Positions 24,472-45,512 of a stretch of 64,000 nucleotides of DNA are shown here, piece by piece (the first letter of the stretch is position 1; every line of letters starts with the position of its first letter). The position numbers were made by a program, and so were the translations under genes. The notes below the pieces were generated by a model that ran no database searches, had not been told where the DNA came from, and was given only the letters and a program-made list of their open reading frames with translations. Source of the DNA: Oscillospiraceae bacterium (GTDB taxonomy: Bacteria > Bacillota > Clostridia > Oscillospirales > CAG-272); contig SVQP01000007.1 of assembly GCA_015065285.1 (NCBI GenBank), positions 7,520-71,519 of the forward strand. The letters are read 5' to 3'.

Positions 24472-24735
24472 TTATCTTGCCAGTGTAAAGAAGATCCACG
24501 TGACCAAAAAGGACACGAAAATGATGCCCAGTGTGACCATCATAGGCCAGAACATCAGCTTGACTGCCGCAAAATACGTGCGGAATTGCTCGCGCAGCGT
24601 ACCCTTAGCACCGGGATCTCTTGGCTTTTCGCCCGGGCGGCGACGGCTGTCCTGCAGCGGCTGCATATCAACCACGGTCGAGCCGTCGTCCACGTAGCGG
24701 ATCTTTTGCTTTTTTTCCTTATTCTTGTTCGCCAT
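24472..24735 (-). CDS. Small membrane protein, last gene of the opp operon
   Basis: MANKNKEKKQKIRYVDDGSTVVDM...; C-terminal TM; GAGG RBS; overlaps the oppF 3' end. Confidence 0.7.
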   Translation of the reverse strand: MANKNKEKKQKIRYVDDGSTVVDMQPLQDSRRRPGEKPRDPGAKGTLREQFRTYFAAVKLMFWPMMVTLGIIFVSFLVTWIFFTLAR

Positions 24736-25858
24736 TGCTTGCGTCCTCTGCATACATGTGGCAGGCTGCAAAGTGACCCGGCTCAACCTCGCGGTACGCG
24801 GGGGTCACGTGCTTGCAAATCTCTTTGGCATAGGGGCAGCGCGTATGGAAGCGGCAGCCCTTGGGGGGATTTGCGGGAGAGGGAATGTCTCCGCCCAGCA
24901 CCATGCGCTGCATCTTGGCATCGGGATCGGGATTGGGGATCGCCGAGAACAGTGCCTGCGTGTAGGGGTGCAGGGGATTGCCGAAGATATCCTTCTTGGC
25001 ACCGAACTCTACCATTGAGCCAAGGTACATCACACCGATCTTATCCGAGATAAACTTGACCACCGACAAATCGTGCGAGATGAACAGGTAAGTCAGGTTC
25101 ATGGATTTTTGCAGCTCCTTGAGCAGATTGATGATCTGCGCCTGAATGGAAACGTCCAGCGCGGATACGGGCTCGTCACAAATCACCAGCTTGGGCTTGA
25201 CCGAAAGCGCACGCGCAATGCAGATACGCTGACGCTGACCGCCCGAGAATTCGTGGGGATAGCGCTCATAGTAATAATCGCGCAGACCGCACTTTTCCAT
25301 CAGATCCAGCACGTAAGCCTTGACCTGTTTTTCGGGCACGATCTTGTGCACGCGCACGGGCTCGGAAAGAATGTCGCCAACCGTGCTTCTGGGGGGCAGG
25401 GAGGAATAGGGGTCCTGGAAAATGATCTGCATCTCGGTGCGCAGCTTACGCATCTTGGAAGGGGGATATTTGGTAATATCCTGACCGTCAAACAAAATCT
25501 GACCGCCGTTGGAGGGATGAAACTTGAGAATGGTTCTGCCCATGGTGGTCTTGCCACAGCCGGATTCACCAACGATACCCAGCGTTTCACCGGGGTTGAG
25601 CACAAAGGAAACATCATCCACTGCAATCAACTCCTGCTGCACCTTGCCCATCAGAGATTTCTTGATGGGGAAGGCTTTTCTTAAGTGGCGCACCTCCAAA
25701 AGGGCGTTGGGATCGGGCTGCTTGCCTGCATCCGTTTCAATTGCCGCAGCCTTTTTCTCTGCCAGCTCGGCAGCAAGCGCTGCGTCGTCAAAGGAGGTCT
25801 CGGTATCGGGCATGCTCTGCCAGCGCGCAAGTGCGCGCTCGTAAGTAATATCAGCCAT
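24719..25858 (-). CDS. oppF: Oligopeptide ABC transporter ATP-binding protein
   Basis: GESGCGKTT, FQDPYSSL, YPHEFSGGQRQR, CDEPVSALD, oligo_HPY and Cys-rich tail. Confidence 0.92.
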   Translation of the reverse strand: MADITYERALARWQSMPDTETSFDDAALAAELAEKKAAAIETDAGKQPDPNALLEVRHLRKAFPIKKSLMGKVQQELIAVDDVSFVLNPGETLGIVGESGCGKTTMGRTILKFHPSNGGQILFDGQDITKYPPSKMRKLRTEMQIIFQDPYSSLPPRSTVGDILSEPVRVHKIVPEKQVKAYVLDLMEKCGLRDYYYERYPHEFSGGQRQRICIARALSVKPKLVICDEPVSALDVSIQAQIINLLKELQKSMNLTYLFISHDLSVVKFISDKIGVMYLGSMVEFGAKKDIFGNPLHPYTQALFSAIPNPDPDAKMQRMVLGGDIPSPANPPKGCRFHTRCPYAKEICKHVTPAYREVEPGHFAACHMYAEDASNGEQE

Positions 25859-26996
25859 TTACCTCTTCCTCCTTATCGTAAAGGTGGCAGGACACAAAGT
25901 GGGTGGGGCTGACCTGAATCATATCGGGGTAGTCGCCGCCGCACTTGTCGCAGCATCTGTCGCATCTCTCCTTGAAGAAACAATGCGTGGGCATGTTCAC
26001 GGGGTTGGGAACGTTGCCGGGAATATTGAACAGCACGTCGCTGTCGCTTTGCATGGTGGGCTTGGATTTCTGAAGTCCGATGGTGTAGGGGTGCAGGGGA
26101 TTCTTGAAGATCTCCTGAACAGTGCCCTTTTCGATCACCTTTCCTGCATACATGACCACCACGTAATCCGCCATCTCGGCAATGACACCAAGGTCGTGCG
26201 TGATCAGCATGATCGAGCCGTTGATCTTGTCCTTCAGATCGCGCAAAAGGTCAAGGATCTGTGCCTGAATGGTCACATCCAGCGCGGTGGTGGGCTCGTC
26301 CGCAATGATCAGACGGGGATTGCACACCAGAGCCATGGAGATCATCACGCGCTGTCTCATACCGCCCGAAAGCTCGTGGGGATAGGAGTTGTACACGCGC
26401 TCGGGCGCGGCAATACCAACCAGCTTGAGCATCTCAATCGAGCGTGCCTGCGCCTCCTCGGCAGTTGCCTCGGGTCTGTGAATGTACGTTACCTCGTCAA
26501 GCTGGTCACCGATGGTGAAGATGGGGTTGAGCGAGGTCATGGGCTCCTGGAAGATCATGGCGATCTCCTTGCCGCGGATACGGTAGATCTCGCTGATCGG
26601 CATCTCGGCAATATCATAGGTCTTATCCTCGGCTGCAAAACGGATCGAGCCGGAGTAGATCTGACCGGTCGGACCCTGCAAAAGTCTCATGACTGACATG
26701 CTTGTCACGCTCTTGCCGCAGCCGGATTCGCCCACGATGCCCACGGTTTTGTTTTTGGGAATATCAAAGGAAACGCCGTTGACCGCCTTGACCACGCCCT
26801 GATCGGTGAAGAAGTAGGTGTGCAGGTCGTCAATCTCAAGGATGTTGTCTGCGTTCTTCATCTCGCAAACAAATTCCTCTTCCTTTGCTCTGCGGTGCTT
26901 TTTGGCTTCCAGAGCCATCATCACCTTTTTGTTCTGCTTGGCAATGGCACGGATCTCCTTGCCCGAGAGATAGGAGGATTTTTTCTTTTCTTTCAT
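25851..26996 (-). CDS. oppD: Oligopeptide ABC transporter ATP-binding protein
   Basis: [39 protein letters not shown]. Confidence 0.92.
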
Positions 26997-27009
26997 GGTC
27001 TCATCCTCC

Positions 27010-28071
27010 TTATCTTCTCATTTTGGGGTCAAGCGCGTCGCGCAAGCCGTCGCCCACAAAGTTGAAGCCCAGCACCGCCATGATGATGCAAAGACCGGGA
27101 GGGCCCCAGATATTGAAATAGTTTTGCAGAATGTTGGAGTCGTTGGCAGCGTTGATCATGGTACCCCATGCGGCAAACTGCTCGGGCGCACCCAGACCAA
27201 GGTAGGTCAGGGAAGCCTCGTAAAGGATCATGGAGCCAAGGCTGAGCGTCATGGAAACGATCAGCTGAGGCATGACGTTGGGCACCAGGTGCTTGAAGAT
27301 CTTGCGCACGGTGCTGTATCCCATTGCCTCTGCAGCCACCATGTATTCCTGCTCACGCAAGGAGAGGATCTGACCTCTGACAAGGCGAGCGGTGCCGGGC
27401 CAGGAGATCAGCGACAGGAATGCCATCAGGTAATAAATGCGGTGCTGCGGCTCAATCGGAATGGGAAAATCGGGCGTTTTGCTCCACGCATCCAACACCG
27501 TACCTACAACCAGCATGATCGGGATACCGGGCAGACACATCAGCACGTCGCACACACGCATGATAATGTTGTCGATCAAGCCACCAAAGTAGCCTGCAAT
27601 GCCACCGAATACCACGCCGATGGCAGCGATGACGAATACGGTCAAAAAGCTGATGGTCAGCGAGATTCTGCCGCCGTACATCAGTCTTGCCAGCACGTCC
27701 TTGCCCGTCTTGTCAGTGCCCAAGGGGTGCTCCCATGAGGGTTTGGCAAGCGTGTTGGTGTCCTCGCGGGTTTCCTCAAGCTGATAGTAGGAGTGCTCCA
27801 CGCCGTTTTCGTCCACGTAGGTGATCAGGGTCTGCACGTATTCCACTCTGCCGTTGTAGTCCACCTCGGTCTGATCCCACTGGGTATAGAACACGGGACC
27901 CAGCCAGCAGAAAGCGAACAGAAATACGATCAGCACAAGACCCAGTACGCTGAGCTTGGAGCGGAAGAAGCGGCGCACCACCATTCTACCCGGAGACATC
28001 AGGCGCACGTTCTTATCCAGTGGTTCTTCCTTTTCGGGGGCGTTTTGAATTTTGATTTCTTTTTCGCTCAT
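27010..28071 (-). CDS. oppC: Oligopeptide ABC transporter permease
   Basis: HPLGTDKTGKDVLARLMYGGRISL; EAA loop EYMVAAEAMG; GDGLRDALDP; ATG 28071 with AAGGAGG RBS. Confidence 0.92.
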   Translation of the reverse strand: MSEKEIKIQNAPEKEEPLDKNVRLMSPGRMVVRRFFRSKLSVLGLVLIVFLFAFCWLGPVFYTQWDQTEVDYNGRVEYVQTLITYVDENGVEHSYYQLEETREDTNTLAKPSWEHPLGTDKTGKDVLARLMYGGRISLTISFLTVFVIAAIGVVFGGIAGYFGGLIDNIIMRVCDVLMCLPGIPIMLVVGTVLDAWSKTPDFPIPIEPQHRIYYLMAFLSLISWPGTARLVRGQILSLREQEYMVAAEAMGYSTVRKIFKHLVPNVMPQLIVSMTLSLGSMILYEASLTYLGLGAPEQFAAWGTMINAANDSNILQNYFNIWGPPGLCIIMAVLGFNFVGDGLRDALDPKMRR

Positions 28072-28084
28072 ATCAATCGCCTCC

Positions 28085-29080
28085 TTAACCAAGCTTGACT
28101 CTGGGGTCAACCACAGCGTACATGATATCGGCGAGCAGCACGCCCACGATACTCAGCACAGCCAAGAACAGGTTGTAGCCCATGATAAAGGGAATATCGG
28201 CAACCAGTGTGGCTTGGTAAGCCATGTTACCGATGCCGGGCAGACCAAACACCTGCTCGGTGATGATCGCACCCGAGAACAGCGAGGGCAAAAGCCCTGC
28301 CAGGGAGGTGACCAGAGGAATGAGCGTGTTACGGAAGGCGTGCTTGTAAATCACCTTGGTCTCGCTCAGACCCTTGGCGCGTGCGGTACGGATGTAATCC
28401 GAGCCCAGCACCTCCAGCATATTGGTTCTGGTCATTCTCATTCTGCCGCCAATGCTCAGCACCACCACGGTCAACACGGGGATGACCAGATAGGAAACGT
28501 AGTCCAGTATCAGCCAGATGCCCGTGTAGTCCATGGTTGCCGATCCAAGACCTGAGGATGGGAACCATCCCAGCTGCATGGCAAGCATGTTTTTGAGTAT
28601 CTGCCCGAAGAAGAAGGATGGCAGGGAAATACCGATCATAACCAGTACCGTTACGAAGTAGTCACGGAAGGAATATTGGTGGGTTGCTGCCGTGATGCCA
28701 AGAGGAATGGCGATCATGAACTCAAACACGGTTGCAATGGCTGCGACCGCGAACGAGACCCACATGTTTTTGGCAATGACGTCCGCAACCGGCTGCTGGA
28801 ACTTGAAGCTTGTGCCAAAGTCCAGTCTGAGCGTTGCGCGCAGCCAGGTGAAATAACCGCGGAACATGCCGCCAAGCGTGCCGTCCGTACCGTATCCGTA
28901 TTCGCTCATCAGCGCCTGAACCGTTTCTTCGCTGACTGCCTCGCCCTTGGTTTCAATGGCGGCAATCTGCTGAGTAACGTAGTCCATAGGCATCAGCTGA
29001 ATCAGCACGAACATGATCACCGATACGCAGAACAGAATCAGAACCGACAGTGCAAGGCGCTTAATAATATATTTTATCAT
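28085..29080 (-). CDS. oppB: Oligopeptide ABC transporter permease
   Basis: MIKYIIKRL, DFGTSF, DYIRTARAKGL, KHAFRN, YAVVDPR. Confidence 0.92.
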   Translation of the reverse strand: MIKYIIKRLALSVLILFCVSVIMFVLIQLMPMDYVTQQIAAIETKGEAVSEETVQALMSEYGYGTDGTLGGMFRGYFTWLRATLRLDFGTSFKFQQPVADVIAKNMWVSFAVAAIATVFEFMIAIPLGITAATHQYSFRDYFVTVLVMIGISLPSFFFGQILKNMLAMQLGWFPSSGLGSATMDYTGIWLILDYVSYLVIPVLTVVVLSIGGRMRMTRTNMLEVLGSDYIRTARAKGLSETKVIYKHAFRNTLIPLVTSLAGLLPSLFSGAIITEQVFGLPGIGNMAYQATLVADIPFIMGYNLFLAVLSIVGVLLADIMYAVVDPRVKLG

Positions 29081-29098: not shown

Positions 29099-31669
29099 TT
29101 ACTGTGCAAATTCAATTTCCCAGATGTGCTCCAGGGGAGAGGTGTAGGGGTTGATCTCGGATGGCAGGGAGGATGCGTCAATCACGTTTGCGTTGTAAGC
29201 GTACAGGGTTTTTCTCTGATATACGGGCAATTCGATTGCCAGATCCAGTACGTAGCCCATCGCTTCCTTGTAAAGCTCTGTGCGCTCCTCTTGGTCGGTG
29301 GTTTCGCGTGCCATGTCGATGACCTCGCTGAGCATATCGAGAATGGCATTTTCCTCGGGATAAGCAGCGGGTGCTGCCAGAATCTCGCGGTATCCCCACG
29401 CCAGCGTGCTGGACGCGGTGGAATTCTTATGGTAGACCTGATACATATCGGGGTCAACCGTGGTGCCCCAAGCGGCAGCCCATACTGCCAAGGATCCTGT
29501 GGAGAGCTTGGTCAGCGCCTGCGTATCGGGCACGATCTCAATATCCCATCCGCATTCGTTGAGCAGTGCCTGCGCACTCTCAAATACCTTGTAGGCGGGG
29601 TGGTCGGTCAGGTCAGCGCCTGCGATGGTAAAGGTGATGGAAAGCTGACTGTCACCCTCGGAAACGCCTGCAGCTGCCATGTAATCCAGAATGGTCTGCT
29701 TTGCAATCTCACGGTTGAAGTTGATTGCGGGGTATTCGTGTCCGTTGTCGCGGCTGGGAATGCCATCCTCGGTGGGATATGCCCAGCTGACCGTGGACAT
29801 GGGCCAGTAAATGGTGCTTGCAGTACCCGTGCTGTAGTATTCCAGTGCAAGGTCAATGTTCATGGCACACATAATGGCTTTGCGCAGGTTGATGTCGGGC
29901 ACCTTGCCTGCATTGATGCCGATGTAACCGTAGCCAAGCTGGTCGGTATACGTGCTCTGAATGCCCTTGGCACCAAGATTGTTGATTCTCTCAATGTTTT
30001 CCTGCGTGTACTGGGGTGTGACGAAGTGCACCTCACCCTTCTCCAGCGTATCCAGCGCGTTGGTGGCGCTGACCACCTGATAACGCAGCTTTTCGATCTT
30101 GGGAGTGCCCATCATGAATTTGTCGTTTGCCTTGAAATACACGATGTTGTTGACGTAGAAATCTGCGCCCTTGGGGTTATCCTCGTTGTTTCTGTTGGTT
30201 GCCTTGTAAGGACCTGCGCCAACAGGCACCTTGGTCACCTCACTTGCGCGGATGGTGTTGGACATAAAGTCAAAGGAGCCGTAGTCCACGCCGAATTTGT
30301 TGTTGGGGATATCCACGGTGTAGCCCTGTCCGTAGTAGTGCTGGGGAGCAACCGAGAACGCGAAGTTCCAGATCGCCTTGGGGTCCACACCGTTGATGGT
30401 GATCTGCAGCACGTCGTATTCGTCTCTGTTGACGGGTGTGCCGTCGGGGTTGTGCTCGTGCGCTACGGTGTAGGTGCCGTTGTTCGCCTCTACCTCAAAG
30501 ACGTCGGTGGTGTGACCGAGCGAGACAATGCCCGCGATGTTGGGAACCAGAAGCGTGCCGTCCTCGGACATGTTTTCACGCAGGATGACTGTGGTAGCCT
30601 GCGCGCTGTATTCGGTCATCAGCGTGTTGGCGGTAGCCCAGTATTGCAGGATGATGTGCAGCTCTTGCTCAATCTTCTGGTTGTAAACGTACTCGATCGC
30701 CTTTTCCTTGGAGGTTACAACGTCGGAAGAGTAGTTGCGGGTCACCTTTTTGATCTGTGTTTTGATGTCCTTGTTGGTCACGGGGTCCTTTTCGAACTCG
30801 ATGGTCACAAAGCCCTCTGCGAACATGAAGGAGGTGATCTCGTCAAACTCACCGGTTTCCTTATAAGGCGTTTCGGTGTAAGCGCTCGATGCGGAGGTGT
30901 AGTCGGATTCCAGCTCCTTTTTGAACTCCTCAAGCGCCTTTTCGTAGTCCTTGCGCAGCTGATCGGTGGTAACAGACGCGTAGTCGCTCGAAATGGCTTC
31001 CTTGTAGCCCTTGGAAAGCCCTGCGGTCGCAATAGCAGCGATCATAGTGTCGTAATCGGCACTGTAAGAGCCTGCGGTATCGGTTCTGCCCACCTGCTTG
31101 TACAGGTTGATCAGCTCGTTGATGCGGTTTTTGGCGCGGGTGTTTGCCAGCTCTGCGATAATCTCGCTGGTATCGTCGGTACCCGAGCCCCTGGTCTGGG
31201 TTCTGTAGTTTTGCAGACCCACAATGTCGGTGGAGTACATGGTGGAGGAGCCGGTGTACACGGGGTCGAGGTAGACGTACATGTTAAACAGCACGTCCTC
31301 AATGGTCAGGGGCTCTCCGTCCGAGTACAGAATGTCGTTTTTGATGACGAAGGTGTAGGTGGTCGTGTCTGCGATGTCATCGTATTCGATGGCATAGTCC
31401 ATCGCCACGACTGCCTCTTCGGGACCGCAGGCAACCGTGACCTGACCGTTTTCATAGCCGGTGGTCAGCATGGCGATCTGGGTCATGGCAACAATGGTGC
31501 CGTCAGACGCGGTGGTGGAATAGAAGGGGTTGAATACGCCGTCCAGCGCGTCGGTCATCACAACCAGCGCATCGGGCTTTGTGGGACGCTGTCCGCAGCT
31601 GCCCAGTACGCTAAGCGTACCAAGCAGCATGGCAGCACAGAGAAGCATGCAAAGAATTCTTTTATTCAT
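29099..31669 (-). CDS. oppA: Oligopeptide-binding lipoprotein (SBP family 5), unusually long at 856 aa
   Basis: Lipobox LGSC; DGVFNPFY, YSDGEPLTIEDVLF, VGAGPYK, LRKAI motifs. Confidence 0.88.
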   Translation of the reverse strand: MNKRILCMLLCAAMLLGTLSVLGSCGQRPTKPDALVVMTDALDGVFNPFYSTTASDGTIVAMTQIAMLTTGYENGQVTVACGPEEAVVAMDYAIEYDDIADTTTYTFVIKNDILYSDGEPLTIEDVLFNMYVYLDPVYTGSSTMYSTDIVGLQNYRTQTRGSGTDDTSEIIAELANTRAKNRINELINLYKQVGRTDTAGSYSADYDTMIAAIATAGLSKGYKEAISSDYASVTTDQLRKDYEKALEEFKKELESDYTSASSAYTETPYKETGEFDEITSFMFAEGFVTIEFEKDPVTNKDIKTQIKKVTRNYSSDVVTSKEKAIEYVYNQKIEQELHIILQYWATANTLMTEYSAQATTVILRENMSEDGTLLVPNIAGIVSLGHTTDVFEVEANNGTYTVAHEHNPDGTPVNRDEYDVLQITINGVDPKAIWNFAFSVAPQHYYGQGYTVDIPNNKFGVDYGSFDFMSNTIRASEVTKVPVGAGPYKATNRNNEDNPKGADFYVNNIVYFKANDKFMMGTPKIEKLRYQVVSATNALDTLEKGEVHFVTPQYTQENIERINNLGAKGIQSTYTDQLGYGYIGINAGKVPDINLRKAIMCAMNIDLALEYYSTGTASTIYWPMSTVSWAYPTEDGIPSRDNGHEYPAINFNREIAKQTILDYMAAAGVSEGDSQLSITFTIAGADLTDHPAYKVFESAQALLNECGWDIEIVPDTQALTKLSTGSLAVWAAAWGTTVDPDMYQVYHKNSTASSTLAWGYREILAAPAAYPEENAILDMLSEVIDMARETTDQEERTELYKEAMGYVLDLAIELPVYQRKTLYAYNANVIDASSLPSEINPYTSPLEHIWEIEFAQ

Positions 31670-37600: not shown

Positions 37601-40418
37601 CGGTAATGGTGATCTGCATTTCCTTTGCACCGCGCAGCATACCCATCCAAACGTATTCCAGCGAGTTGATCGCGCCCTCCTGGTTGGAAAGCGAGATGTA
37701 ATCGCGGTTTGCGGAGATCTTCTTGGATGCGGGATCCTGAATGAAGTAGAAGGAACCAAGGTAGCTGACGTAGTCACCGTACAAGGAGCCGATGGGGCGG
37801 GAAGCGTACGCGTCGGGCATGGTCTTGTCTTCAAAGTCGATGGCGTCGTCCAACTCGTCCTTATTGGTCTCAAAGTATTCGATATCGAACATGGGTGCAC
37901 GGGTCCAGTCGCCGTAGAAAGCAAGGAAGGGGCAACCCAGATCCACCGTGCCCTCGCCCTGTGCGTCGAGCTGTACAAAGCCCTCAACGTACATGCCGTT
38001 GGCAAAGGAATCGTCCAGATACTTGCGATCCTGCTCGCTAAGCGTCAGGGTCAACTCCACGTCAGCCGTGCTGCCCGCAGCGACGGTCACGCTCTGAGAG
38101 TTTTGTTCTGCGCCCGCAACTGCGGTGACCTTGACGCCCACGCCCTCGAGCAGGTAGCCCTCCTCGGTGACGACGGTCTGACCGTCCACAGTCTTGGTCT
38201 CGCTGACGCCCTCGGTCATCACCGTGGCGGAAATATTGTATGTTAAGGCAGTAGAACCAAAGTTGACAATCGAGAATTTCAGAACGTACACGCCCACCTT
38301 ATCGGGGTCATCGCCAAGCTCGATCTTGGATTTGTCCATGATAGAGCCGTCGAGTCTGTTGTAGGTCTGAATATATGCGGTGGTCAGTGCGCATTCGTCC
38401 AGGTTGGCAAGTCCTGCACCCTGCTTTCTGACCGAGTAGGGGAGTCCGTTCTTGGCAAACACCACGTCGGAGGTGGACATCAAAAGGCGATTGACCAGCG
38501 CTGCAACCTCTTTGTCGTTATCTGCAATTTCGGGGAAGTTTTCCTTGACGTACTGACGCAGCAGCGCCACTACGCCGGACATGTTGGGGCAAGCCATCGA
38601 GGTGCCCGAAATGCGGTCGTAATCCTGACCGGGAACAGCCGAGAGGATCGAGCCACCGTGTGCGGTGATCTCGGGCTTGATCTCAAGGTCGGGGGTAGGA
38701 CCCCAGGAGGAGAAGCCGGACATGAAGGGACCGGAGGTCTGTGCGCGGCTGAAGGTAATGGTACCCTTGCCCGCAGCCTCCAGCATCTCACCGTCGTCCT
38801 GGCTGATTGAGCAGGAGGGAATGGTAGCGTCGCCCACGTTCATGCGGATCTCACCGGATACGTTGTTGTAAACGATCACGGCGGCAGCGCCCTTTGCCTG
38901 CGCCACGTTGACCTTTTCTTCAAAGGTGGTGGAGCCTCTGGCAACCAGCGCCACCTTGCCTGCAATATCAATGCCTGTATAGTCGGCAGATCGACCCGCA
39001 CCGGGAATGACCACGTATTCCAGCGTCAGGGAGTCTGTGCCCTCGGGCAGAATATCGTCGATCAGGTGCTTTTCCTTGCCCGCTCTGTTTGCCGAGTCGG
39101 TAAAGTAGATGATCTTGCCGTCATAGGTCATGTAAGGAGTCTTTGCGCCTTCAATCGAAGCCACGCAAAGCGCACCTGCGTAGGTGGAGGGAGAGCCGAC
39201 GGTTGCGGAGTCGGGGTTGCTGGTCAAGCCAAGGTTGCCGTTTTTCTCCGAGCCGTAGGTGGAGTTGTAGCTGTTGGAGGCTGCAACCACCAGGCTGATG
39301 CCCGCTTCGCGGATATGATCGTACACGCCTGCGATCTGTTCCTTGTCGTTCTCGGTGGAGAAGCCGCACGAAGTACCGATCGAGAGGTTGATGACGTCAA
39401 CGCCCAGTACTACGCAGTCCTCCAGCGCGCCCAGAATCCATGAGGTACGTGCGCTGGTCTCGGTATCCGAGAAGATCTTCATGGAAACCAGCTGCGCGTT
39501 GGGCGCAACGCCCGTGATGGTATCGTCGCGACCTGCGATGATGCCCGAGACGTGCGTGCCGTGGTCGGACTGAATGGGATATACGTCCGAGTCTCTGTCC
39601 GCGTAGTCAAAGCTGTAGGGAACCTTTTCGCTGATGTAAACGTCGGAGGCGGTAAGCCCGCTCTGAATGCCCGACGCCTCGGTCTTGCCAACCAAGCCCT
39701 CTACGTCGGAGAAGGTCATGCCAAGCTTATCTCTGTCTGCGGTAAAGTTCTCCACAGAGAACGCGGAGTGGTAGTAGTCAAGACCGGTGTCAAGCACAGC
39801 CACGACCATGCCGGTGCCGTCGTATGCAAAGTCGGAGCTGTCAAAAATACCGGTGTCGTAAACGTCAACCGTGTTTTCCACCAGCTTGGTCTCTGCGGGG
39901 AGGTAGACTTCGCCGACAATGGCGGTAGCCTTGCCGTCAAGCAGCTCGTCTACGCGTGCTAAGTCCTTTGCCTGCACCGTGATCTCAAAGCCGGAGAGAA
40001 CGGTGTTGTAGCAAAGGCCAAGGTCATAGTCGAGTCCCGATGCATCCAATTCTGCCAGCAGGGCTGCTTGCTTGTCGGCAATACTCTGCTTGATGGCAGC
40101 GGCGTCAGCGGAGCTTGCATACTCGGAAAGCGACAGGTCGGTGTCAGCTTTCTTGTAGGCGTCCATGACGCTGGGAAGATCGGTTCTGATGATCAACGAG
40201 ATAATGTCCGTGTCCGAAACCGTGTCGGGCAGCTTATGCACCACGTTGCTGTCAAGCAGGCTCTCGAGGTTTGTCTGAATATCCCCGTCGAACAGTCCGA
40301 TATATCCGGTCTGCTCTGTGCCCGAGACGGACAGGGAGGACATGGTCAGGAGCGTTGACACCACCATGGCAAGGGCAATGATGCACGTGATCACTTTTGC
40401 AATTGTTTTGCTCTTCAT
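31692..40418 (-). CDS. Giant cell-surface S8 subtilase with PA, Fn3-like, Ig-like and BspA-type LRR domains, two TM helices and a C-terminal extracellular region
   Basis: Catalytic triad VAVLDTG / HGTHVSG / SGTSMACP; PA domain GKVALVARG; many IGxxAFxxCxxLxxV repeats; start ATG 40418 (or TTG 40460). Confidence 0.88.
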   Translation of the reverse strand: MKSKTIAKVITCIIALAMVVSTLLTMSSLSVSGTEQTGYIGLFDGDIQTNLESLLDSNVVHKLPDTVSDTDIISLIIRTDLPSVMDAYKKADTDLSLSEYASSADAAAIKQSIADKQAALLAELDASGLDYDLGLCYNTVLSGFEITVQAKDLARVDELLDGKATAIVGEVYLPAETKLVENTVDVYDTGIFDSSDFAYDGTGMVVAVLDTGLDYYHSAFSVENFTADRDKLGMTFSDVEGLVGKTEASGIQSGLTASDVYISEKVPYSFDYADRDSDVYPIQSDHGTHVSGIIAGRDDTITGVAPNAQLVSMKIFSDTETSARTSWILGALEDCVVLGVDVINLSIGTSCGFSTENDKEQIAGVYDHIREAGISLVVAASNSYNSTYGSEKNGNLGLTSNPDSATVGSPSTYAGALCVASIEGAKTPYMTYDGKIIYFTDSANRAGKEKHLIDDILPEGTDSLTLEYVVIPGAGRSADYTGIDIAGKVALVARGSTTFEEKVNVAQAKGAAAVIVYNNVSGEIRMNVGDATIPSCSISQDDGEMLEAAGKGTITFSRAQTSGPFMSGFSSWGPTPDLEIKPEITAHGGSILSAVPGQDYDRISGTSMACPNMSGVVALLRQYVKENFPEIADNDKEVAALVNRLLMSTSDVVFAKNGLPYSVRKQGAGLANLDECALTTAYIQTYNRLDGSIMDKSKIELGDDPDKVGVYVLKFSIVNFGSTALTYNISATVMTEGVSETKTVDGQTVVTEEGYLLEGVGVKVTAVAGAEQNSQSVTVAAGSTADVELTLTLSEQDRKYLDDSFANGMYVEGFVQLDAQGEGTVDLGCPFLAFYGDWTRAPMFDIEYFETNKDELDDAIDFEDKTMPDAYASRPIGSLYGDYVSYLGSFYFIQDPASKKISANRDYISLSNQEGAINSLEYVWMGMLRGAKEMQITITDDSTGEVVFERTEQWIRKSYSDGGASIYPANLDVGFSAIEQKLKNNTKYTVTIKGLLDYGDGGADTNLRNTMTFPLYTDFEAPAVTDTEFYTEYDKSEKINRLYAKVKIYDNHYAMGLQAGYVALEESGYIFKSFGKYVTAIYSEYNSTTEVIIELTDYIDDIKSGSAHKNTFALTCYDYAMNEATYEIGLPDEYVDFYLPEFADFEPDAEQDMPTLYLSPYQIYELNPVLYPGESWADLLIYDTYRPENVAIVGNTLVPVTPGTLTRIRITDPNDNKNFYEFRVKVLSEGEPGYVEYDKPVTDSFELTGYRVDKAFYFVNSADRGLGVTGDEAKFGSTNYALEMYPSESITVRYKLNAYFPETTKVVFESSNPDIVTVDAKTGTITAQKEGFASISAMVEMDGKSTYYSKSISIEVKDPYVTQGPILQNYFGLGGTVVIPESLSITEIGQFAFSNYDYIDKSPEEITDEDPESTKIWYIGENTIKEVIIPEGVETISAYAFANLTALERVVLPSTLTRIDWGAFYGCTALKTVVGLEHVKFINEGAFEGCSAMSGTINLKSAVAIADYAFAGCSSLTSVTLSESIQSIGMHAFANNSSLRTLTIKAPIYKIGKYAFAGCEALTEVSINAAVIPTGAFQGAKKLTKITLGKDVAVINENAFGGTKLESINVDAANTRFVTGENLSYVVDKTSSTLILVAPATSGVFAPDLNVTTIGTGAFSGNANITAVVLPSVTQLQPYAFADCKKLTSVSLGDLTLIGDYAFANTALKQTPSFAHLDYIGAYAFSNTALTSLTLPDGMSTGKGAFAECTKLESVTIGKGVTLGDNAFYLNSFTNREFLMNPDMLNAFYYVVYKSPLHSLTIGEDVKIGNYAFYGAAELESVTLGKGAVIGDYAFFNAAVLSDIDLSQVVSIGKGAFSGDVYNDYYDEAFTSPVIDVNGEYVYRYFAPVLKEVHLDSLYSLGEEAFAYCQLLQKVTLGDAVSEIPDKAFLYCRNLSDINLGKVEKIGSNTFYTTKLQSADLGAATHIGTYAFAYCEQLAAVTFGTADTTLCEGAFAYDTSLASVIGMQNLSYVGDYAFAYTILPGADLRFATYIGTHAFYKDTVADFTVVLGEALADMGDNPFAMCRLEKFSSVEVESFNGKDYETITYTYDVSHSIRVIDGHIYRVVPKGLELITYTSGDDVVHVADGTVRISAMAFAGTPVKQVILPYTLRAIGHKAFFDCDSLRLVTFSSYNAPILEEEFDALYHESFDNIPATGDYSFYAADGSTLTKPGLGIIPYYMWNADTSYHNTYYGATFVDYIGHVTSPITMVRPVNGNHYDSFIFSQYFDTMIDGSAAADEITLAAIQAINALPETVSLSDKALVQAARAAYDKISTKEQQALVYNYDKLLAAERRISDLEAISGNQGETEPVPEGPKGVSVTFVLSIALAVLGIISLALAVLCVAMLPKVYSAENKAAAEAAKAAKEAEKRAEAEKPIKLNKPHKPRGMGKQGQQSKLAKLAARVPLGKIFTFIAVISISAALVLMAITLFSSTGSQWKDPYKQFDKQGYSVSIRFDAGEGKFANRDVTVVDVFSLDDYEIGEDGKVHIPLLDPQDKLRGAQAYIVDNPGYVLAGWYTDRQPRTDEQGNPLDAYGELTSVSGREQGWIYSGRWTFDSDTVAVDPESVTTGADAVLTLYAAWVPHVQFNIYNANELDENNNPVLLETYTGSKLSVPTWKNGAISLGGNFPKLDGTPNAIYSDAAMTQPVTEPIKLEINYENGTTNTPAIDVYVDLWEGQWFKISSAKQFYKHARPDGNYIIEADLDFSVKGAIWPTNLYKGQTQFTGQIIGNGHKISNVTVLQPDGAQQGGLFGYIGEGASITDLHFENVTYTATGSRIQGSTFGLLCGTLSDKATLENVTISGKLLIDPSLLLENMDFATYGMLCGSGSAQGISLDNIRVEATGDNKNRVILTVDRDTGEITVTVRD

Positions 40419-40496: not shown

Positions 40497-40525
40497 ATTA
40501 TATCACATCTCGCGCGCGTGCGCAA
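40497..40525 (-). promoter_or_regulatory. Promoter for the protease-opp operon
   Basis: Minus strand TTGCGC-17 bp-TATAAT with TG extension. Confidence 0.55.
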
Positions 40526-40768
40526 GGGCGAGCGCGTATTTCTCTTTGGGCATGTAGCATAAAATAAGCATGTATTAAGTAAAGATTGCGTGGAATTGCT
40601 ACAAAATTATTATAGAAAAAAGCACAATAAAAGTAATGCTCTTGATTTTTGGGGCAGAATATGTTAGAATATGACTAACAATTACTATTTTACAATCGGA
40701 GAGTCTGCGCAAGTGTGATTTTCCGGCAAGACATTGCGATGAAAAATGTATGTAACAGGAGAAAACAG

Positions 40769-43552
40769 ATGAGAATTTTCAAAAAGACAACGGCACTGAT
40801 GCTCGTGTTGTTTTTGACTCTGAGCATGCTGCTGACTGCCTGCACCACGCCCGGTGAGGGTGAAGAGTCCACGTCGCAGGGCGGTTCGGATCAGACCACG
40901 CAGCAGGGCACGACACAGGCGCCCGATGATCAGCCCACAGGCGAGAAAAAGGCGTATACGGTTGAGGTCAAGACCGTGGGCGGCATGGCACTTGAGGGCG
41001 TGACCGTCAAGGTGTACACCGACAGCACCATGGCGGATCTGGTCAACTTCGGCACCACCGATGCCGATGGCAAGGCTGTGATCGAAATGCCTGCCAAGGA
41101 AGGCTACGTAGCAGAGCTTTCGGGTCTGCCCGCAGGCTATGAGTGCGAGCCCTATTATGAGTTTGTTGGCAACGGCGTCAGCATTTACGTAGTATCCCGC
41201 GTGATTGCGGATACCAATATCAACGGCGTTTCCTATAAGGTTGGCGACGTCATTCGTGATTTCACGGTTGTGGACAGCGACGGCACGTCTCACACCCTGT
41301 CCGAGATCCTGAAGGAAAAGGAACTGGTTGTGCTCAACTTCTGGTACACCACCTGCTCCTGGTGTGTAGAGGAATTCCCCTACCTGGAGGCGGCATACCA
41401 GAACTATGGCGACAAGGTCGAGGTTCTGGCGCTTGACCCCTACGGCACCGATTCCGAGAGTGCCATTGCCGAATTCAAGGCAAGCATGGGTCTTTCCTTC
41501 CCCATGATCAAGGATTATAACGCGCTGTACGCTGCATTCGGCGTTACCGCATTCCCCACCTCGGTATTTATTGACCGCTACGGTGTGATCTGCCTGATCG
41601 AGACAGGCGCGCTGATCGGTGATCAGCCCTTTACCGTGGCATTTGATCACTTTACCGGTGACGATTACGTACAGGGACTTTATTCCAGCGTGGACAGCCT
41701 GGTTCCCGAGGTTGAGGTCAACGTTTCCATGCCTGATCCTTCCGAGATCGCGGCTGCTGTGAACGGTGAGGGCTTCAACTGCACCTATCGCGCAGAGGAG
41801 AGCGAGGAGTTTGCTTCGATCACCTGGCCCTTCGTGCTTGGCGAAAAGGACGGCTATACCTGCCTGAAGCCTGCAAATTCGGGCGTGACCAACTCCTTCT
41901 CGATCATTTATATGGACGTTGAGCTTAAGGCGGGCGAGGCGCTCTGCTTTGATTTCTATTCCTCGAGCGAGGCGTATTGCGACGTGCTTTACACCATTGT
42001 CAACGGGGTGGACGTCAACAGCATCTCGGGCGAGATGGGCTGGAGAAGCTGCTATCCTTACGTTGCAACTGCGGACGGCACCTACGAGATCGCGCTGACC
42101 TACGTCAAGGACGGTGACAGTGACGTGGGTGAGGATACCGTTTATATCAGAAATCTGCGCATTGTGGATATGGAGAACATTGATTCTCCCACGTATATCC
42201 CCCGCTATGCGGCAACCGACAGAGCCGAGGACGGCTTTGGCTATAACAATTACGTCACCGTTGTGTTCAACGAGCAGGACGGCTACTACCACGTTGGTAC
42301 CGAGGATGGACCTCTGCTGCTTGCAGATTTGATGAACTACACGCAGTTCAGCCAGCAGACTGTGTTTGACATGGCGTATAACGGTTTGCTTGGCGATGAT
42401 TTCTATGATCTTGCTGTGGATTATTTCTCCTTTGCATCCAACTCTCAGCTTGTCGGTATCTGTACGGTCAACCAAGAGCTTGCGGAGCTGCTCAAGAGAG
42501 TGACCGCAACGCTTGGCTCCGAGGGTCACGATCAGGAATGGCTGCAGCTGTGCATGTATTATGATGCGTACGGCACAGAGTACCAGCTTGAGGACCCCAT
42601 CAAGGGTCTTGCTCCTTTCTGCGCGTACAAGGCTGAGCTTGGTGACAACAATGCCTTTGTTTATAACCGCGTGATCATGCCCAGAGGCTTGCTTGCCGAG
42701 TTTATTCCCACAGTTTCGGGTGTATATCGTATTACCTCGTACAGCGATCAGGACGTGGATGGCTGGATCTTTGACGAAAACCGCGTGGAGCTGCTGGTTT
42801 ACGAGCACTGCGAGAGAATGTATTTCGATATGAGCAACGTTTCCATGGTTCTCTACATGGAAGCGGGCACTCCTTATTATATCGACATTGCATACTGGGA
42901 CGTTTACGGTGCGGGCACCATTCCGTATTCCGTTGAATATATTGGCGAAAGCTATGAATATTTCCGCACCTGCGCGCCCGGTTATTTTACCTACTATGAG
43001 ACCGAGGACGAGAACGTGACCAACGAGATCGTCGGCGGCGGCATCAAGGTAGCCCTTGGTGAGGATGGCTACTACCATGAGCTGCGTGCGGACGGTAGCC
43101 TTGGCAGTATCGTTTACGCTGACTTTACAAGCGTTTCCTCCATCTTCAGTCACTCTTTGGTACAGATGATCGACATGAAGTCCTTCAATTTCAAGTACAG
43201 TGAGGGCGACTTGCTGATTCTGAGCTATTATGAGAGATATCAGGAAAACACCAAGGAAAAGCTGCAGGAGCTCTGGGGCGATGCTTATGAGGAGTATGCC
43301 GAGGAATATCAGCTGGACGAGGTGCTTGCAGGCACGTATCACGGTACGGGCGACGATATGACCGAGATCGCCAAGAAGTATGCGGCACTGGTTCTGCCCA
43401 CAAGCGAAGAGGCTCCCGAGCTGGAGGGCTGCGTGGCAGTCAATGCAGAGCTTGCGGATCTTTTGCAGAAGCTGATGGATAAGTACACGTTTGAGGGCGT
43501 GGATGATTCCTGGATCAAGCTGTGCTTCTACTACCAGCATCTGGGCGCATAA
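40769..43552 (+). CDS. Lipoprotein with Ig-like module, TlpA/ResA-type thioredoxin domain and repeated unknown domains
   Basis: Lipobox LTAC; LNFWYTTCSWCVEEFP (CxxC); cis-Pro AFPTSVFID; ACAGGAG RBS. Confidence 0.85.
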   Translation: MRIFKKTTALMLVLFLTLSMLLTACTTPGEGEESTSQGGSDQTTQQGTTQAPDDQPTGEKKAYTVEVKTVGGMALEGVTVKVYTDSTMADLVNFGTTDADGKAVIEMPAKEGYVAELSGLPAGYECEPYYEFVGNGVSIYVVSRVIADTNINGVSYKVGDVIRDFTVVDSDGTSHTLSEILKEKELVVLNFWYTTCSWCVEEFPYLEAAYQNYGDKVEVLALDPYGTDSESAIAEFKASMGLSFPMIKDYNALYAAFGVTAFPTSVFIDRYGVICLIETGALIGDQPFTVAFDHFTGDDYVQGLYSSVDSLVPEVEVNVSMPDPSEIAAAVNGEGFNCTYRAEESEEFASITWPFVLGEKDGYTCLKPANSGVTNSFSIIYMDVELKAGEALCFDFYSSSEAYCDVLYTIVNGVDVNSISGEMGWRSCYPYVATADGTYEIALTYVKDGDSDVGEDTVYIRNLRIVDMENIDSPTYIPRYAATDRAEDGFGYNNYVTVVFNEQDGYYHVGTEDGPLLLADLMNYTQFSQQTVFDMAYNGLLGDDFYDLAVDYFSFASNSQLVGICTVNQELAELLKRVTATLGSEGHDQEWLQLCMYYDAYGTEYQLEDPIKGLAPFCAYKAELGDNNAFVYNRVIMPRGLLAEFIPTVSGVYRITSYSDQDVDGWIFDENRVELLVYEHCERMYFDMSNVSMVLYMEAGTPYYIDIAYWDVYGAGTIPYSVEYIGESYEYFRTCAPGYFTYYETEDENVTNEIVGGGIKVALGEDGYYHELRADGSLGSIVYADFTSVSSIFSHSLVQMIDMKSFNFKYSEGDLLILSYYERYQENTKEKLQELWGDAYEEYAEEYQLDEVLAGTYHGTGDDMTEIAKKYAALVLPTSEEAPELEGCVAVNAELADLLQKLMDKYTFEGVDDSWIKLCFYYQHLGA

Positions 43553-43564
43553 ATTCCGAATTTT

Positions 43565-43596
43565 TTGCCGAACCCTTTGCAAAAAGGGTTCGGCAA
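43565..43596. terminator. Intercistronic hairpin
   Basis: TTGCCGAACCCTTT-gcaa-AAAGGGTTCGGCAA. Confidence 0.6.
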
Positions 43597-43687
43597 TGCC
43601 GTCTTTTGCTTGTATTTTCGGTGGCACCGAAAAATCAACCGGGGATGGAAAATTTAACAAACGATAATGAAATCGAGGCTTTTTATC

Positions 43688-45040
43688 ATGCTTTTTGCAA
43701 AAAACAAAGCGATTATCGCACTGCTTTGCCTGCTTTTATGCCTTGGCATATTGCTTGCTGCATGTGAGAACGGGCAGGAAAATGTGCCCGACGGCAGCGA
43801 ATCAACAAGCGCGGAGCAAAGCGAATCTGTCGGTACCGAGAGCGAATCGGATGCCGAGGATGACGTGACCGGGCAGGGCAGCGACACGGACTCCGAGAGC
43901 GAGAGCGAGACCCAGCCCGCAATCGAAACGCTGGCTTATACCGTGACCGTCATCGGCTCGGATGGTAACCCTCGTCAAGGCGCAATGGTGGTGATCCTTA
44001 AGAATGGTGAGGCGATCGTTACCTCTCCCACGTTGGCTGACGGCACACTGACAGCCGAGCTCGAGGTGGGCGAGTATGAGGTCAAGCTGCTCAATTTGTT
44101 GGGCGAGGCATATCGCACAGAGGGCTGTGTGCTGACTCCCGAATCCACCGCCTTGACCATTTCACTCTGCGGTCTTCCCACTGCAGGCGAGGAGATCTTT
44201 GCGTACAGTGCGTCTGCTGACGACTATATTGCATATGACGCCAAGAGAGTGGTGGAAGGGCGCACGATGGTGACACTGAGCGCTGACGACATGACCTATT
44301 ATCTGTTCGTCTCCTCTCGTGGCGGCACCTTCAAGCTGTCCATGGACGAGGATCTGCCGGTTTCGATCGGCTATTTCGGCTCTACCTCGTACGTCATGAC
44401 CGAGTCGATTGCGACGGAGCAGGACAACGCCATTTGCGTGGACGTTTATGACGATATGGTGTTCAATTATGCTTTCGTCATTGGCATTCGTGCCGAGGAT
44501 GCATCGCTTAAGGAGTGCGAGCTGACCGTAGAATACGTGTCCGAGCGTGAGACTACCGAGCATGATCTGCCCTGGAATGATCTGATGCCGGATCACGAGC
44601 TGCTCAAGTACACCATGGGCGCGGGCACGGTGACGAATTTTGCCGTAGACAGTGCCGAAATTGTGCTGGTATACAGCGAGTCCGACGGCTATTATCACGT
44701 GGGCAGCGAAAGCGGTCCTGTGGTGTTGGTCAATCTGAATAACAATTCGAAGTATATGGATGCGCTGACCACGGTTTGCTCCAACATGCGTCTGGGTGTT
44801 TACGTGTACGACGAGGATGGCAAGCTGGTATCCAAGGATAGCTATAACGAGCTGATCTGGGCGTACAACGAGGTGGCGGACGGCGGCTATTATCCGCTGG
44901 ATGATACCTTGCTGGATATGCTCAAGACGGTGGGCGACTATATGGGCTGGTACGATCCCGCATCTCCCATGTATTTGTTTGAGGGTGTGGCGCTCGAGCC
45001 TGCCAACGCGTATTTGTTCGCGTGTGTTTATTTGCAGTAA
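43688..45040 (+). CDS. Lipoprotein with Ig-like module and a domain shared with the upstream lipoprotein
   Basis: Lipobox LAAC; acidic S/E linker; YTVTVIGSDGNP module; DGYYHVGSESGP...YLFACVY. Confidence 0.8.
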   Translation: MLFAKNKAIIALLCLLLCLGILLAACENGQENVPDGSESTSAEQSESVGTESESDAEDDVTGQGSDTDSESESETQPAIETLAYTVTVIGSDGNPRQGAMVVILKNGEAIVTSPTLADGTLTAELEVGEYEVKLLNLLGEAYRTEGCVLTPESTALTISLCGLPTAGEEIFAYSASADDYIAYDAKRVVEGRTMVTLSADDMTYYLFVSSRGGTFKLSMDEDLPVSIGYFGSTSYVMTESIATEQDNAICVDVYDDMVFNYAFVIGIRAEDASLKECELTVEYVSERETTEHDLPWNDLMPDHELLKYTMGAGTVTNFAVDSAEIVLVYSESDGYYHVGSESGPVVLVNLNNNSKYMDALTTVCSNMRLGVYVYDEDGKLVSKDSYNELIWAYNEVADGGYYPLDDTLLDMLKTVGDYMGWYDPASPMYLFEGVALEPANAYLFACVYLQ

Positions 45041-45068
45041 TTTTTTGAAAATATAAGGAGAATTGATT

Positions 45069-45512
45069 ATGAACTTCAAGAGAATCGCACTGCTGCTGGC
45101 AGCAGTTCTTGTGCTTGGCGCTATGATGAGCTTTGTCGCATGCGACGGCGGTGAGGGCGAGCAGACCACCGAGGCTGCAACCGAGGCGCCCGAGCAGACT
45201 ACTGCGGGCACGCAGACGCCTGCCACCGAGCAGACCACCGAGGCAGAGACCGAGAGCGGCAAGGTAACGTACACTGTTACCGTTGTGGATGCAAACGGTG
45301 CGCCCGTTAAGGACGTAGCCGTTCAGTTCTGTGATGATAACGGTTGCCGCATGCCGGTTGCCACCAACGCACAGGGCGTCGTAACCTTGACTGAAGCAGA
45401 GAGTAACTTCCACGTCACGCTGGCAAGCGTTCCCGCAGGCTATGCGGCAGATGCTACCGAATATTATTTCGATGGCGCGCTTGAGCTGACCATCACCCTG
45501 CAGGCTGAGTAA
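45069..45512 (+). CDS. Small lipoprotein with a single Ig-like module carrying CxxxxC
   Basis: Lipobox FVAC; T/E-rich linker; YTVTVVDANGAPVKDVAVQFCDDNGC; AAGGAG RBS. Confidence 0.8.
   Translation: MNFKRIALLLAAVLVLGAMMSFVACDGGEGEQTTEAATEAPEQTTAGTQTPATEQTTEAETESGKVTYTVTVVDANGAPVKDVAVQFCDDNGCRMPVATNAQGVVTLTEAESNFHVTLASVPAGYAADATEYYFDGALELTITLQAE

Follow-up and report, generated by a model that had tools for sequence, protein, structure and literature searches.

A surface protease and peptide importer operon linked to thiol-redox lipoproteins in animal-gut Clostridia

Introduction

Compared with the use of polysaccharides, the supply of amino acids to strictly anaerobic gut Clostridia from intact host or dietary protein is poorly understood. 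For lactic acid bacteria, the pairing of a surface proteinase with the oligopeptide importer Opp is textbook knowledge. Here we describe a locus on a 64,000-nucleotide stretch of contig SVQP01000007.1 from an Oscillospiraceae bacterium (the whole stretch is called the window throughout), in which a giant subtilase with a leucine-rich repeat (LRR) array is encoded together with a complete Opp transporter, next to a divergent set of three lipoprotein genes. We call their products LpRdx, Lp2 and Lp3, the first of which carries a thioredoxin-type domain.

Extracytoplasmic proteins of the thioredoxin family provide a second point of reference. The classical electron donor of ResA/TlpA-type proteins is CcdA/DsbD, and DipZ is fused to a membrane domain of the CcdA type. 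The pneumococcal Etrx proteins are described as partners of methionine sulfoxide reductase (Msr) (PMC3914529). A study on Lactococcus lactis SK11 places prtP/prtM and oppABCDF2 on different plasmids (PMC2827410).

We read the new locus as a conserved accessory locus of animal-gut Clostridia that serves surface protein digestion and peptide import with linked thiol-redox lipoproteins, and we put the probability of this reading at roughly 0.55. A first-pass annotation of the same DNA had listed the genes and their coordinates, and open reading frame (ORF) calling together with a Pfam scan of the window found both to be correct. Beyond it, the analysis revealed a gene fusion, a NapH–thioredoxin membrane partner and no match to CcdA/DsbD in the carrier genomes searched.

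Linkage of protease, importer and lipoproteins across genomes

A lack of synteny between the lipoprotein trio and the protease and opp genes in relatives had been named beforehand as grounds for refuting the first-pass proposal; when this was tested, the linkage held. We compared 41 genomes, namely the window's own genome (G000, a metagenome-assembled genome, MAG, 76% complete), 15 others of its genus, nine of its family and 16 of its order. Full-length LpRdx, a close protease and a close OppA were all found in the same 14 genomes (G000; the same-genus genomes G001, G002, G004, G006, G007, G008, G010, G012, G013 and G014; and G017, G019 and G031), and none of the three in the other 27. Five of these 27 belong to the genus (G003, 71% complete; G005, 91%; G009, 96%; G011, 96%; G015, 71%). 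The same picture emerged from 151 genomes sampled evenly over the order: LpRdx modules were present in three genomes, the same three held protease orthologues of at least 56% identity, and eight others held only S8 proteins of 32–37% identity. These counts ignore kinship; related genomes are not independent, and the counts therefore overstate their statistical weight.

The arrangement of the genes was followed over a wider range by a contig scan that used a 12-sequence LpRdx alignment and took one genome for each species. It returned 226 relatives, the best 80 of which were examined by local tblastn, including up to 10 kb of flank on either side as far as the contigs reached. LpRdx has the protease or close opp genes within 10 kb at 45 of these 80 loci, Lp2 at 64, Lp3 at 55, the C-terminal module of the protease at 32 and a NapH–thioredoxin gene at 28. 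Among the 45, the divergent orientation of the window recurs in 24; the protease lies downstream on the same strand in 17, protease and opp lie upstream on the same strand in three, and one locus is convergent. Genes for the S8 protein, the C-terminal module, OppABCDF, the small membrane protein and LpRdx are co-directional in L070, L087 and G017. Eleven further loci end at the NapH–thioredoxin gene, and in all five of those tested the protease begins where the flank ends or slightly outside it. The taxa given in record titles are Oscillospiraceae, Faecousia, Acutalibacteraceae and unclassified Eubacteriales, and all titles that give a source refer to MAGs from animal gut or faeces.

On this comparative record the linkage of the protease–opp genes with the lipoproteins is greater than chance would predict. 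Its survival through four orientations, taken with the gene fusion described below, argues for a shared function, and functional coupling of the two operons is well supported.

Layout and operon signals

The minus-strand run consists of seven genes, from position 40418 down to 24472, whose intergenic gaps measure 22, 18 and 13 bp where the genes do not overlap (Table 1). This agrees with the gaps of less than 25 bp or overlaps described in the first-pass annotation. On the plus strand the three lipobox-protein genes follow in succession and, as had been noted, one of them carries a CxxC thioredoxin domain, here with the motif CSWC. The divergent spacer, previously given as AT-rich and about 350 bp long, is indeed 350 bp in length, with 35.4% GC versus 53.6% for the whole window.

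Two promoter-like blocks in the spacer point away from each other and are conserved across eight genomes of the genus. The candidate promoter of the protease operon was read by eye; it is kept in the eight-genome spacer alignment (A4) and is absent from the consensus-scan listing. The candidate promoter of the lipoprotein operon was obtained by the consensus scan and coincides in the same alignment with the conserved block CTTGATTT...TGTGATACAAT. Terminator-like hairpins follow both operons, and the one directly after the small membrane gene is the likely terminator of the protease–opp operon. Rfam and tRNA scans gave no match inside the locus.

Table 1. Positions of the genes, domains and signals of the locus in the window, except where another contig or locus is named
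Feature	Position	Strand	Description and evidence
Hairpin, likely terminator of the protease–opp operon	24434..24470	.	16-bp stem (16 pairs, 8 GC), palindromic and flanked by T/A runs; immediately follows the last gene of the minus-strand run
Small membrane protein	24472..24786	-	104 aa with a single hydrophobic helix; gene overlaps oppF at its end; ORF and hydropathy
OppF ATPase	24719..25858	-	ABC_tran 9.5e-33, oligo_HPY 1.5e-21
OppD ATPase	25851..26996	-	ABC_tran 8.3e-28, oligo_HPY 2.6e-17
OppC permease	27010..28110	-	BPD_transp_1 1.1e-31, OppC_N 1.2e-09
OppB permease	28085..29080	-	BPD_transp_1 6e-35
OppA lipoprotein, oversized	29099..31669	-	856 aa, lipobox LGSC; SBP_bac_5 3.4e-27, residues 469-751
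Fused protease gene, whole	31692..40418	-	2908 aa from ATG; open frame to 40460, 2922 codons from TTG
C-terminal GLUG-like extracellular module (predicted)	31692..33026	-	~445 aa; the aligned sequence is an ORF of its own in G017 and G031
Membrane anchor region and fusion joint	33027..33350	-	Hydrophobic helix, ~50-aa Lys/Glu/Ala-rich linker, second hydrophobic helix; hydropathy scan and sequence
BspA-type LRR array with helical tail	33399..36068	-	LRR_5 3.2e-109, 7 stretches
Cell-envelope-proteinase core	37926..39818	-	S8 with inserted PA, then Fn3-like domain; Pfam
Candidate promoter, protease operon	40497..40525	-	TTGCGC, 17 nt, TATAAT, TG upstream; read by eye
Candidate promoter, lipoprotein operon	40642..40670	+	TTGATT, 17 nt, TAGAAT, with TG; consensus scan
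LpRdx lipoprotein	40769..43552	+	927 aa, lipobox LTAC; Pfam Redoxin 1.1e-15, CSWC
Lp2 lipoprotein	43667..45040	+	Lipobox; model pLDDT 88.7
Lp3 lipoprotein	45063..45512	+	Lipobox; single Ig-like domain on a linker
Terminator-like hairpin after Lp3	45581..45609	+	13 pairs
NapH–thioredoxin/four-helix gene pair	G000 contig C18:750-3061 (outside the window); L013:2821-5112; L015:7846-10103

A complete Opp/Dpp-type importer is encoded, with a family-5 binding lipoprotein, two BPD_transp_1 permeases and two oligo_HPY-tailed ATPases. About 280 additional residues precede the part of OppA that matches SBP_bac_5. Its nearest solved structure is the oligopeptide binder AppA (1xoc, 1.1e-11), and its match to NCBIfam Opp4A (5.7e-31) lies below the cut-off. 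The large size is kept in relatives, with 854 residues in G017 and full coverage in L044, L070 and L087. Oligopeptides are the predicted ligand of this importer; family-5 binders also include those for nickel and opines, and a size of 856 residues is atypical. The small membrane protein at the end of the operon has no Pfam or NCBIfam family match, and a homologue of its gene adjoins oppF at all four loci with a close oppF (L044, L070, L079 and L087).

A giant protease formed by gene fusion

The giant ORF probably starts at the ATG at 40418, which is the first in the frame and opens a signal-like helix. Pfam places Peptidase_S8 at residues 215–683 (4.8e-41), with a PA domain inserted at 487–560 and followed by fn3_5 at 727–845; a Big_2 domain and the LRR array come after the Fn3-like domain. 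The catalytic Asp-His-Ser triad is present in subtilase order (DTG at 224, HGTH at 300 and GTSMA at 619). The nearest solved structures are streptococcal C5a peptidase (7edd, 3.3e-61) and SpyCEP, with E values from 3.3e-61 to 1e-53, and lactic-acid-bacterial cell-envelope proteinases; the C5a peptidase alignments span residues 193–845. The LRR array is 46–76% identical across 28 relatives and matches the NCBIfam HupY/LrrG adhesin family at 1.8e-35, below its cut-off.

The mode of attachment sets this protein apart from sortase-type surface proteases. A motif scan for the wall anchors LPxT[GAS], NPxTG and LPxAG found none anywhere in the giant protein, and the NCBIfam family of LPXTG-anchored serine peptidases is matched at 227 bits versus a cut-off of 1400. 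Instead, hydrophobic helices lie at residues 2357–2394 and 2446–2464 of the 2908-residue protein, and the predicted topology would put both of its large parts outside the cell. The part beyond the second helix has a weak match to Peptidase_M26_N, the N-terminal region of IgA1 metalloproteases, at an E value of 0.002 and below the family cut-off.

In G017 and G031 the protease stops after the first helix, at 2422 and 2414 residues, and the C-terminal part is an overlapping or abutting lipoprotein gene of its own, encoding 436–456 residues. Among the 31 loci that hold both parts, these are fused in 12 (nine of the window's genus and L030–L032) and split in 19. Because the parts are separate genes in most relatives, comparison of the loci indicates that the giant ORF is a clade-specific in-frame fusion of the protease with a neighbouring lipoprotein of about 440 residues. 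The open frames measure 2918–3001 residues in the nine genomes of the same genus with complete frames, and that of G002 is cut at 1895 residues. The 2900-residue protease of the first-pass annotation thus corresponds to two genes joined in frame.

An internal start of the C-terminal module at the ATG at 33131 was considered and rejected, since the AGAGG motif lies only 1 nt upstream and makes a poor ribosome site; the giant ORF is therefore taken to be read as one fused protein. Related genes in G019 contain GLUG motifs; two GLUG-motif proteins, with 1410 and 801 residues, are encoded there between opp and LpRdx (L017:1-12747).

Lipoproteins with redox and protease-type modules

LpRdx is predicted to be extracytoplasmic and membrane-tethered, with a signal peptide whose lipobox Cys is nearly invariant. 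Its structural model, built from a 50-sequence alignment, has a mean predicted local distance difference test score (pLDDT) of 89.5 and arranges the chain as a disordered linker, an immunoglobulin (Ig)-like domain, the thioredoxin domain and two modules, each made of a beta-sandwich and a helical subdomain. The thioredoxin domain superimposes on ResA (2f9s) with a Z score of 19.6 and a root-mean-square deviation (rmsd) of 1.7 over 136 aligned residues, and also matches TlpA, CcmG, StoA, SdbA and pneumococcal Etrx2 (Z 15.6 for the latter). The two cysteines of the CxxC motif, C196 and C199, are invariant in all 50 aligned sequences, and acidic residues and FP come after the motif.

The first sandwich (residues 320–470) matches the C-domain of the secreted protease VesC (6bqm) with a Z score of 14.8; the wide structure search, which was filled by thioredoxin matches, effectively covers LpRdx up to residue 470. 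In a Foldseek search, the C-terminal part of DipZ, with its two domains, ranks first (E 7e-12, rmsd ~18). Relatives of LpRdx carry only generic public names, either 'TlpA family protein disulfide reductase' or 'redoxin family protein'. The family comprises 1094 matches at 90% clustering among 7999 scored candidates, and the unknown modules match 1036 clusters at 50% identity, 274 of them at an E value of 1e-30 or better.

In Lp2, residues 86–170 form a CnaB/transthyretin-like Ig domain (Z 10–12), and residues 168–291 a sandwich like the PPC/collagen-binding domains of clostridial collagenases (ColH 3jqw, Z 8.9; 5sv5, Z 8.4; 1nqd, Z 8.1). Its C-terminal domain had no match in the wide structure search, which barely tested residues 300–457. 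Foldseek returned only generic matches to Ig, pilin and carbohydrate-binding-module folds with TM scores below 0.33, and a Protein Atlas search returned clusters without names along with weak PPC hints (scores 0.89–0.91). A conserved 'DGYYH' segment is common to Lp2 and both modules of LpRdx. All three lipoproteins have a homologous N-terminal Ig-like domain, and LpRdx and Lp2 share a further module. Judged from these models, the beta-sandwiches of LpRdx and Lp2 resemble accessory domains of secreted proteases.

In Lp3, Q88 and a Cys-x4-Cys pair (C90/C95) are invariant in 37 aligned homologues and absent from the Ig-like domains of LpRdx and Lp2; the pair may form a redox-active or a structural disulfide. 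Two complex predictions that paired the 890-residue LRR array (A5) with the Lp3 Ig domain (residues 62–149, A6) each scored 0.00 and speak neither for nor against an interaction.

The lipoprotein set varies among relatives. G017 has six related lipoprotein genes; in this expanded set (L014:5087-11126) two extra short redoxin lipoproteins of 284 and 390 residues, a 785-residue Lp2-like protein and a 346-residue protein of unknown type are found. In G031, a dockerin-bearing protein of 275 residues adjoins Lp3 (L015:6967-7794).

A candidate membrane partner for the supply of reducing power

In G017, G031 and the 28 loci mentioned above, a protein of about 490 residues with NapH-like and Redoxin parts adjoins the protease or the lipoproteins. 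It combines NapH-like helices, three CX3CP motifs and two 4Fe-4S motifs with an additional membrane helix and a thioredoxin domain with the motif WCGPC; the additional helix and the CGPC thioredoxin domain are not part of NapH. Fer4_5 is matched at 8.7e-18 and TIGR02163 (napH) at 75 bits versus a cut-off of 213, so the protein is related to NapH and is not an equivalog. It is accompanied by a four-helix protein of about 270 residues that ends in CXXC and matches an NCBIfam CD1871A-family domain at 29 bits, just under the cut-off of 32.

A search for CcdA/DsbD (DsbD_TM, PF02683) found no match in G000 (76% complete) or in G008, G010, G012, G017 and G031 (95–99% complete); in the positive control, 10 of 14 genomes were matched. 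Given this result in carriers of the locus and the linked NapH–thioredoxin gene, we propose that the latter feeds electrons to the surface. The NapH–thioredoxin pair is, from its sequence features, a candidate for a CcdA-independent route of extracytoplasmic reducing power.

Proposed function and alternative explanations

In the proposed mechanism, the membrane-anchored subtilase of the cell-envelope type, with its S8 and PA domains, Fn3-like domain and long LRR array, would cut extracellular protein; in this clade two membrane helices connect it with a GLUG-like surface module. The Opp transporter of the same operon, with its unusually large OppA, would import the resulting peptides. The divergent operon would put on the same surface the ResA-like CxxC reductase LpRdx, the PPC-like binder Lp2 and the Cys-pair Ig protein Lp3, which most likely would bind substrate proteins and open their disulfide bonds, allowing the protease to degrade them. 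Reducing power would probably arrive through the NapH-like iron–sulfur membrane protein with its outward CGPC thioredoxin domain. What was observed are the genes with their domains and lipoboxes, the residues of the catalytic and CxxC sites, the signals of the operons, the fusion, synteny and co-occurrence; from these we infer the nutritional role, the identity of the substrate, the redox direction, the electron route and a physical complex. The LRR array may act as a capture device and the redoxin domain may reduce disulfides of substrates; a role of the lipoproteins in maturation or maintenance fits the same data.

Several points weigh against this explanation. Activity, substrate and complex are deduced from sequences and models, and a ResA-like fold leaves the redox direction unfixed. 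Among solved structures the protease comes closest to C5a peptidase and SpyCEP, which are specific virulence proteases and not nutritional ones, and the PPC-like match of Lp2 reaches only a middling Z level. The NapH–thioredoxin gene is unlinked to the locus in G000, where it lies on contig C18, and is present as 526-residue frames in three same-genus genomes without the locus (G009, G011 and G015); it is therefore not specific to this system. At 24 of the 80 loci no protease, opp or NapH–thioredoxin gene was found in the flanks, many of which are cut by contig ends. Of these loci, five have the full 10 kb on both sides; a protease is present elsewhere in four of the five genomes, and the remaining one gave no protease match. 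L060, where the protease lies on the same contig as LpRdx about 7 kb past the flank, is the sole full-flank case that could be placed, and in the genome of L092 the protease occurs only as two fragments at contig ends. Finally, short and near-identical contigs from a gut RNA library (X1, share 0.09), with 0–3 differing letters, fall on oppA, the protease, the spacer and LpRdx. They are weak evidence of expression that shows neither strand, level nor co-transcription, and because the data are contigs only and the library may contain carried-over DNA, they are not counted as evidence of co-expression.

The most serious competitor, which we still hold to be unlikely, is that the lipoproteins serve the protease itself and fold, mature or maintain the Cys-containing LRR protein, or repair oxidised surface proteins, in the manner of PrtM or Etrx1/2. 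The tight linkage and co-occurrence of the lipoproteins with the protease would be expected here as well, and the protease has 25 Cys residues, many of them within LRR repeats. In Lactococcus, PrtP is accompanied by the protein that matures it, PrtM (PMC2827410), and the thioredoxin domain matches the solved pneumococcal lipoprotein Etrx2 (PMC3914529). Yet no parvulin, rotamase or PrsA-type family was matched in LpRdx, Lp2 or Lp3 with Pfam and NCBIfam, and no Msr family was found among the 54 ORFs scanned, which cover the window and not the rest of the genome. The decision turns on two further points: the additional domains of LpRdx and Lp2 resemble substrate-binding accessory domains of secreted proteases, and relatives have varied and enlarged the set of lipoproteins, up to six genes in G017, a pattern more suggestive of diversifying substrates than of a maturase dedicated to one protease. 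For these two reasons we favour action on substrates over protease maturation, with a modest preference.

It is improbable, in our judgement, that the locus is non-nutritional and acts as an adhesin, as a host-factor protease directed at immunoglobulin, chemokine or mucus, or as a processor of signalling peptides, with Opp importing signal peptides. The virulence proteases among the closest solved structures, the resemblance of the LRR array to HupY/LrrG, the weak match to the IgA1-protease N-terminal region and the animal gut or faecal origin in all sourced record titles would suit such a role. But a full five-gene Opp in the protease operon best fits bulk peptide uptake, neither a regulator nor a peptide-pheromone gene was seen among the ORFs and Pfam matches of the locus, and both the LRR adhesin and the M26_N match lie below their family cut-offs. 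The notion that the divergent operons are mere neighbours with unrelated functions is disfavoured and has very little in its favour: the two are separate transcription units with promoter-like sites and terminators of their own, and the 24 loci at which none of the partner genes was found would agree with it, but co-occurrence is perfect in the 41- and 151-genome sets and linkage persists through four orientations, including the co-directional runs of L070, L087 and G017.

Returning to surface digestion with peptide import, a more far-reaching version can be formulated, which we regard as tentative and rather doubtful. Here the locus would be a machine for 'reductive proteolysis', in which electrons from iron–sulfur centres cross the membrane via the NapH–thioredoxin protein without CcdA/DsbD and pass to LpRdx and Lp3, which would hold and unlock disulfide-cross-linked proteins on protease-type binding domains; the LRR subtilase would degrade them and the enlarged OppA would take up long peptides. 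Candidate substrates would be host or dietary mucins, immunoglobulins, plant storage proteins and protease inhibitors, and the locus would form a Gram-positive protein counterpart of a polysaccharide-utilisation locus.

With 226 LpRdx relatives in the scan of genome contigs, the locus is common, widely conserved and unstudied. It brings together, in a concrete unit, a protease, an importer, a surface reductase and what may be a new route for electrons across the membrane. Should proteolysis prove to be coupled to disulfide reduction, this would bear on how mucus, immunoglobulin and disulfide-rich feed protein are turned over in the guts of ruminants and poultry, on enzymes that degrade recalcitrant proteins, and on how bacteria without CcdA/DsbD power extracytoplasmic thiol chemistry.

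Other features of the window

The locus is flanked by ordinary chromosomal genes, with a pyruvate kinase gene upstream and a GH106-like gene downstream. The latter (45826-48009, minus strand) comes immediately after the lipoprotein operon, from which it differs in strand, and encodes a large protein with a weak match to GH106 (alpha-L-rhamnosidase) of 36.3 bits, just over the Pfam cut-off; another large protein (1070-4030, minus strand) has a weak GH106 match below it. The stretch that separates the pyruvate kinase gene from the opp operon's end holds a 136-nt inverted repeat (arms 23511-23646 and 24279-24414, 82% complementary), which encloses about 630 bp of non-coding DNA. The arm is dispersed, with 46 blastn matches over many contigs of the 2.1-Mb genome, several of them full-length and 91–95% identical, and the repeat looks like an element of the REP (repetitive extragenic palindromic) or MITE (miniature inverted-repeat transposable element) kind.

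A MazF/PemK-type toxin gene (21390-21791, minus strand; 2.5e-37) lies between the genes for fructose-bisphosphate aldolase and pyruvate kinase. Further away, a Gut-1 RNA (RF01706; 9415-9485, minus strand) scores 50.7 bits versus a gathering score of 50 and is located just 3' of a gene for a GH4 glycosidase (9542-11581, minus strand). In the longest ORF of that gene, about 240 additional N-terminal residues precede the Pfam match.

Comparison with known systems

The first-pass annotation was aware of no described system of this composition, and full-text searches of the literature returned no paper that describes one. The closest resemblance is to the PrtP/PrtM/Opp system of lactic acid bacteria, with which the locus shares a surface S8 protease with PA insert and Fn3-like domain, an adjacent accessory lipoprotein gene and uptake by OppABCDF. 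Unlike there, protease and opp form one operon, the anchor is a membrane helix and not LPXTG, and the protease carries an LRR array of about 900 residues as well as the GLUG-like module fused to it. Where the lactic acid bacteria have the PrsA-like foldase PrtM, the accessory lipoproteins here are of the thioredoxin type and beta-sandwich type. Streptococcal C5a peptidase (ScpA/ScpB) and SpyCEP are the best solved sequence matches over S8, PA and Fn3, but they are LPXTG-anchored virulence proteases of 1000–1650 residues without LRR array, Opp operon or redox lipoproteins.

With ResA, TlpA and CcmG, LpRdx shares the thioredoxin fold, the CxxC motif followed by acidic residues and FP, and a predicted extracellular membrane tethering. 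These proteins work with CcdA/DsbD, whereas no DsbD_TM/CcdA was found in the six carrier genomes; in addition, the domain is embedded in a lipoprotein of 927 residues with an Ig domain and two beta-sandwich/helical modules, and its gene neighbourhood points to proteolysis, not to the maturation of cytochrome c or spores. Pneumococcal Etrx1 and Etrx2 are likewise surface thioredoxin-family lipoproteins of a Gram-positive bacterium, but they are single-domain proteins that act with CcdA and MsrAB2, in contrast to the six carriers, where CcdA was not found, and to the ORFs of the window, where Msr was not found. The C-terminal domains of M. tuberculosis DipZ also place a beta-sandwich after a thioredoxin domain. 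LpRdx differs in being a lipoprotein with additional modules, and the rmsd of ~18 reflects a different domain arrangement to the solved DipZ entries, which comprise the C-terminal domains only.

The pairing of S8 keratinases with disulfide reductases in keratinolytic organisms is similar in principle, as a subtilase there needs disulfide reduction to attack cross-linked proteins. In the papers found on this pairing, these enzymes are secreted and come from aerobic bacilli, actinomycetes or fungi, and none of those papers describes a conserved locus of protease, reductase and importer.

Each component family of the locus is thus already known, and it is the combination that differs from described systems. 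What sets it apart is the joining of protease and Opp in one operon, the membrane-helix anchor with its fusion, the LRR array, the enlarged OppA and the redox lipoproteins with protease-type modules, together with the apparent replacement of CcdA by a NapH–thioredoxin fusion.

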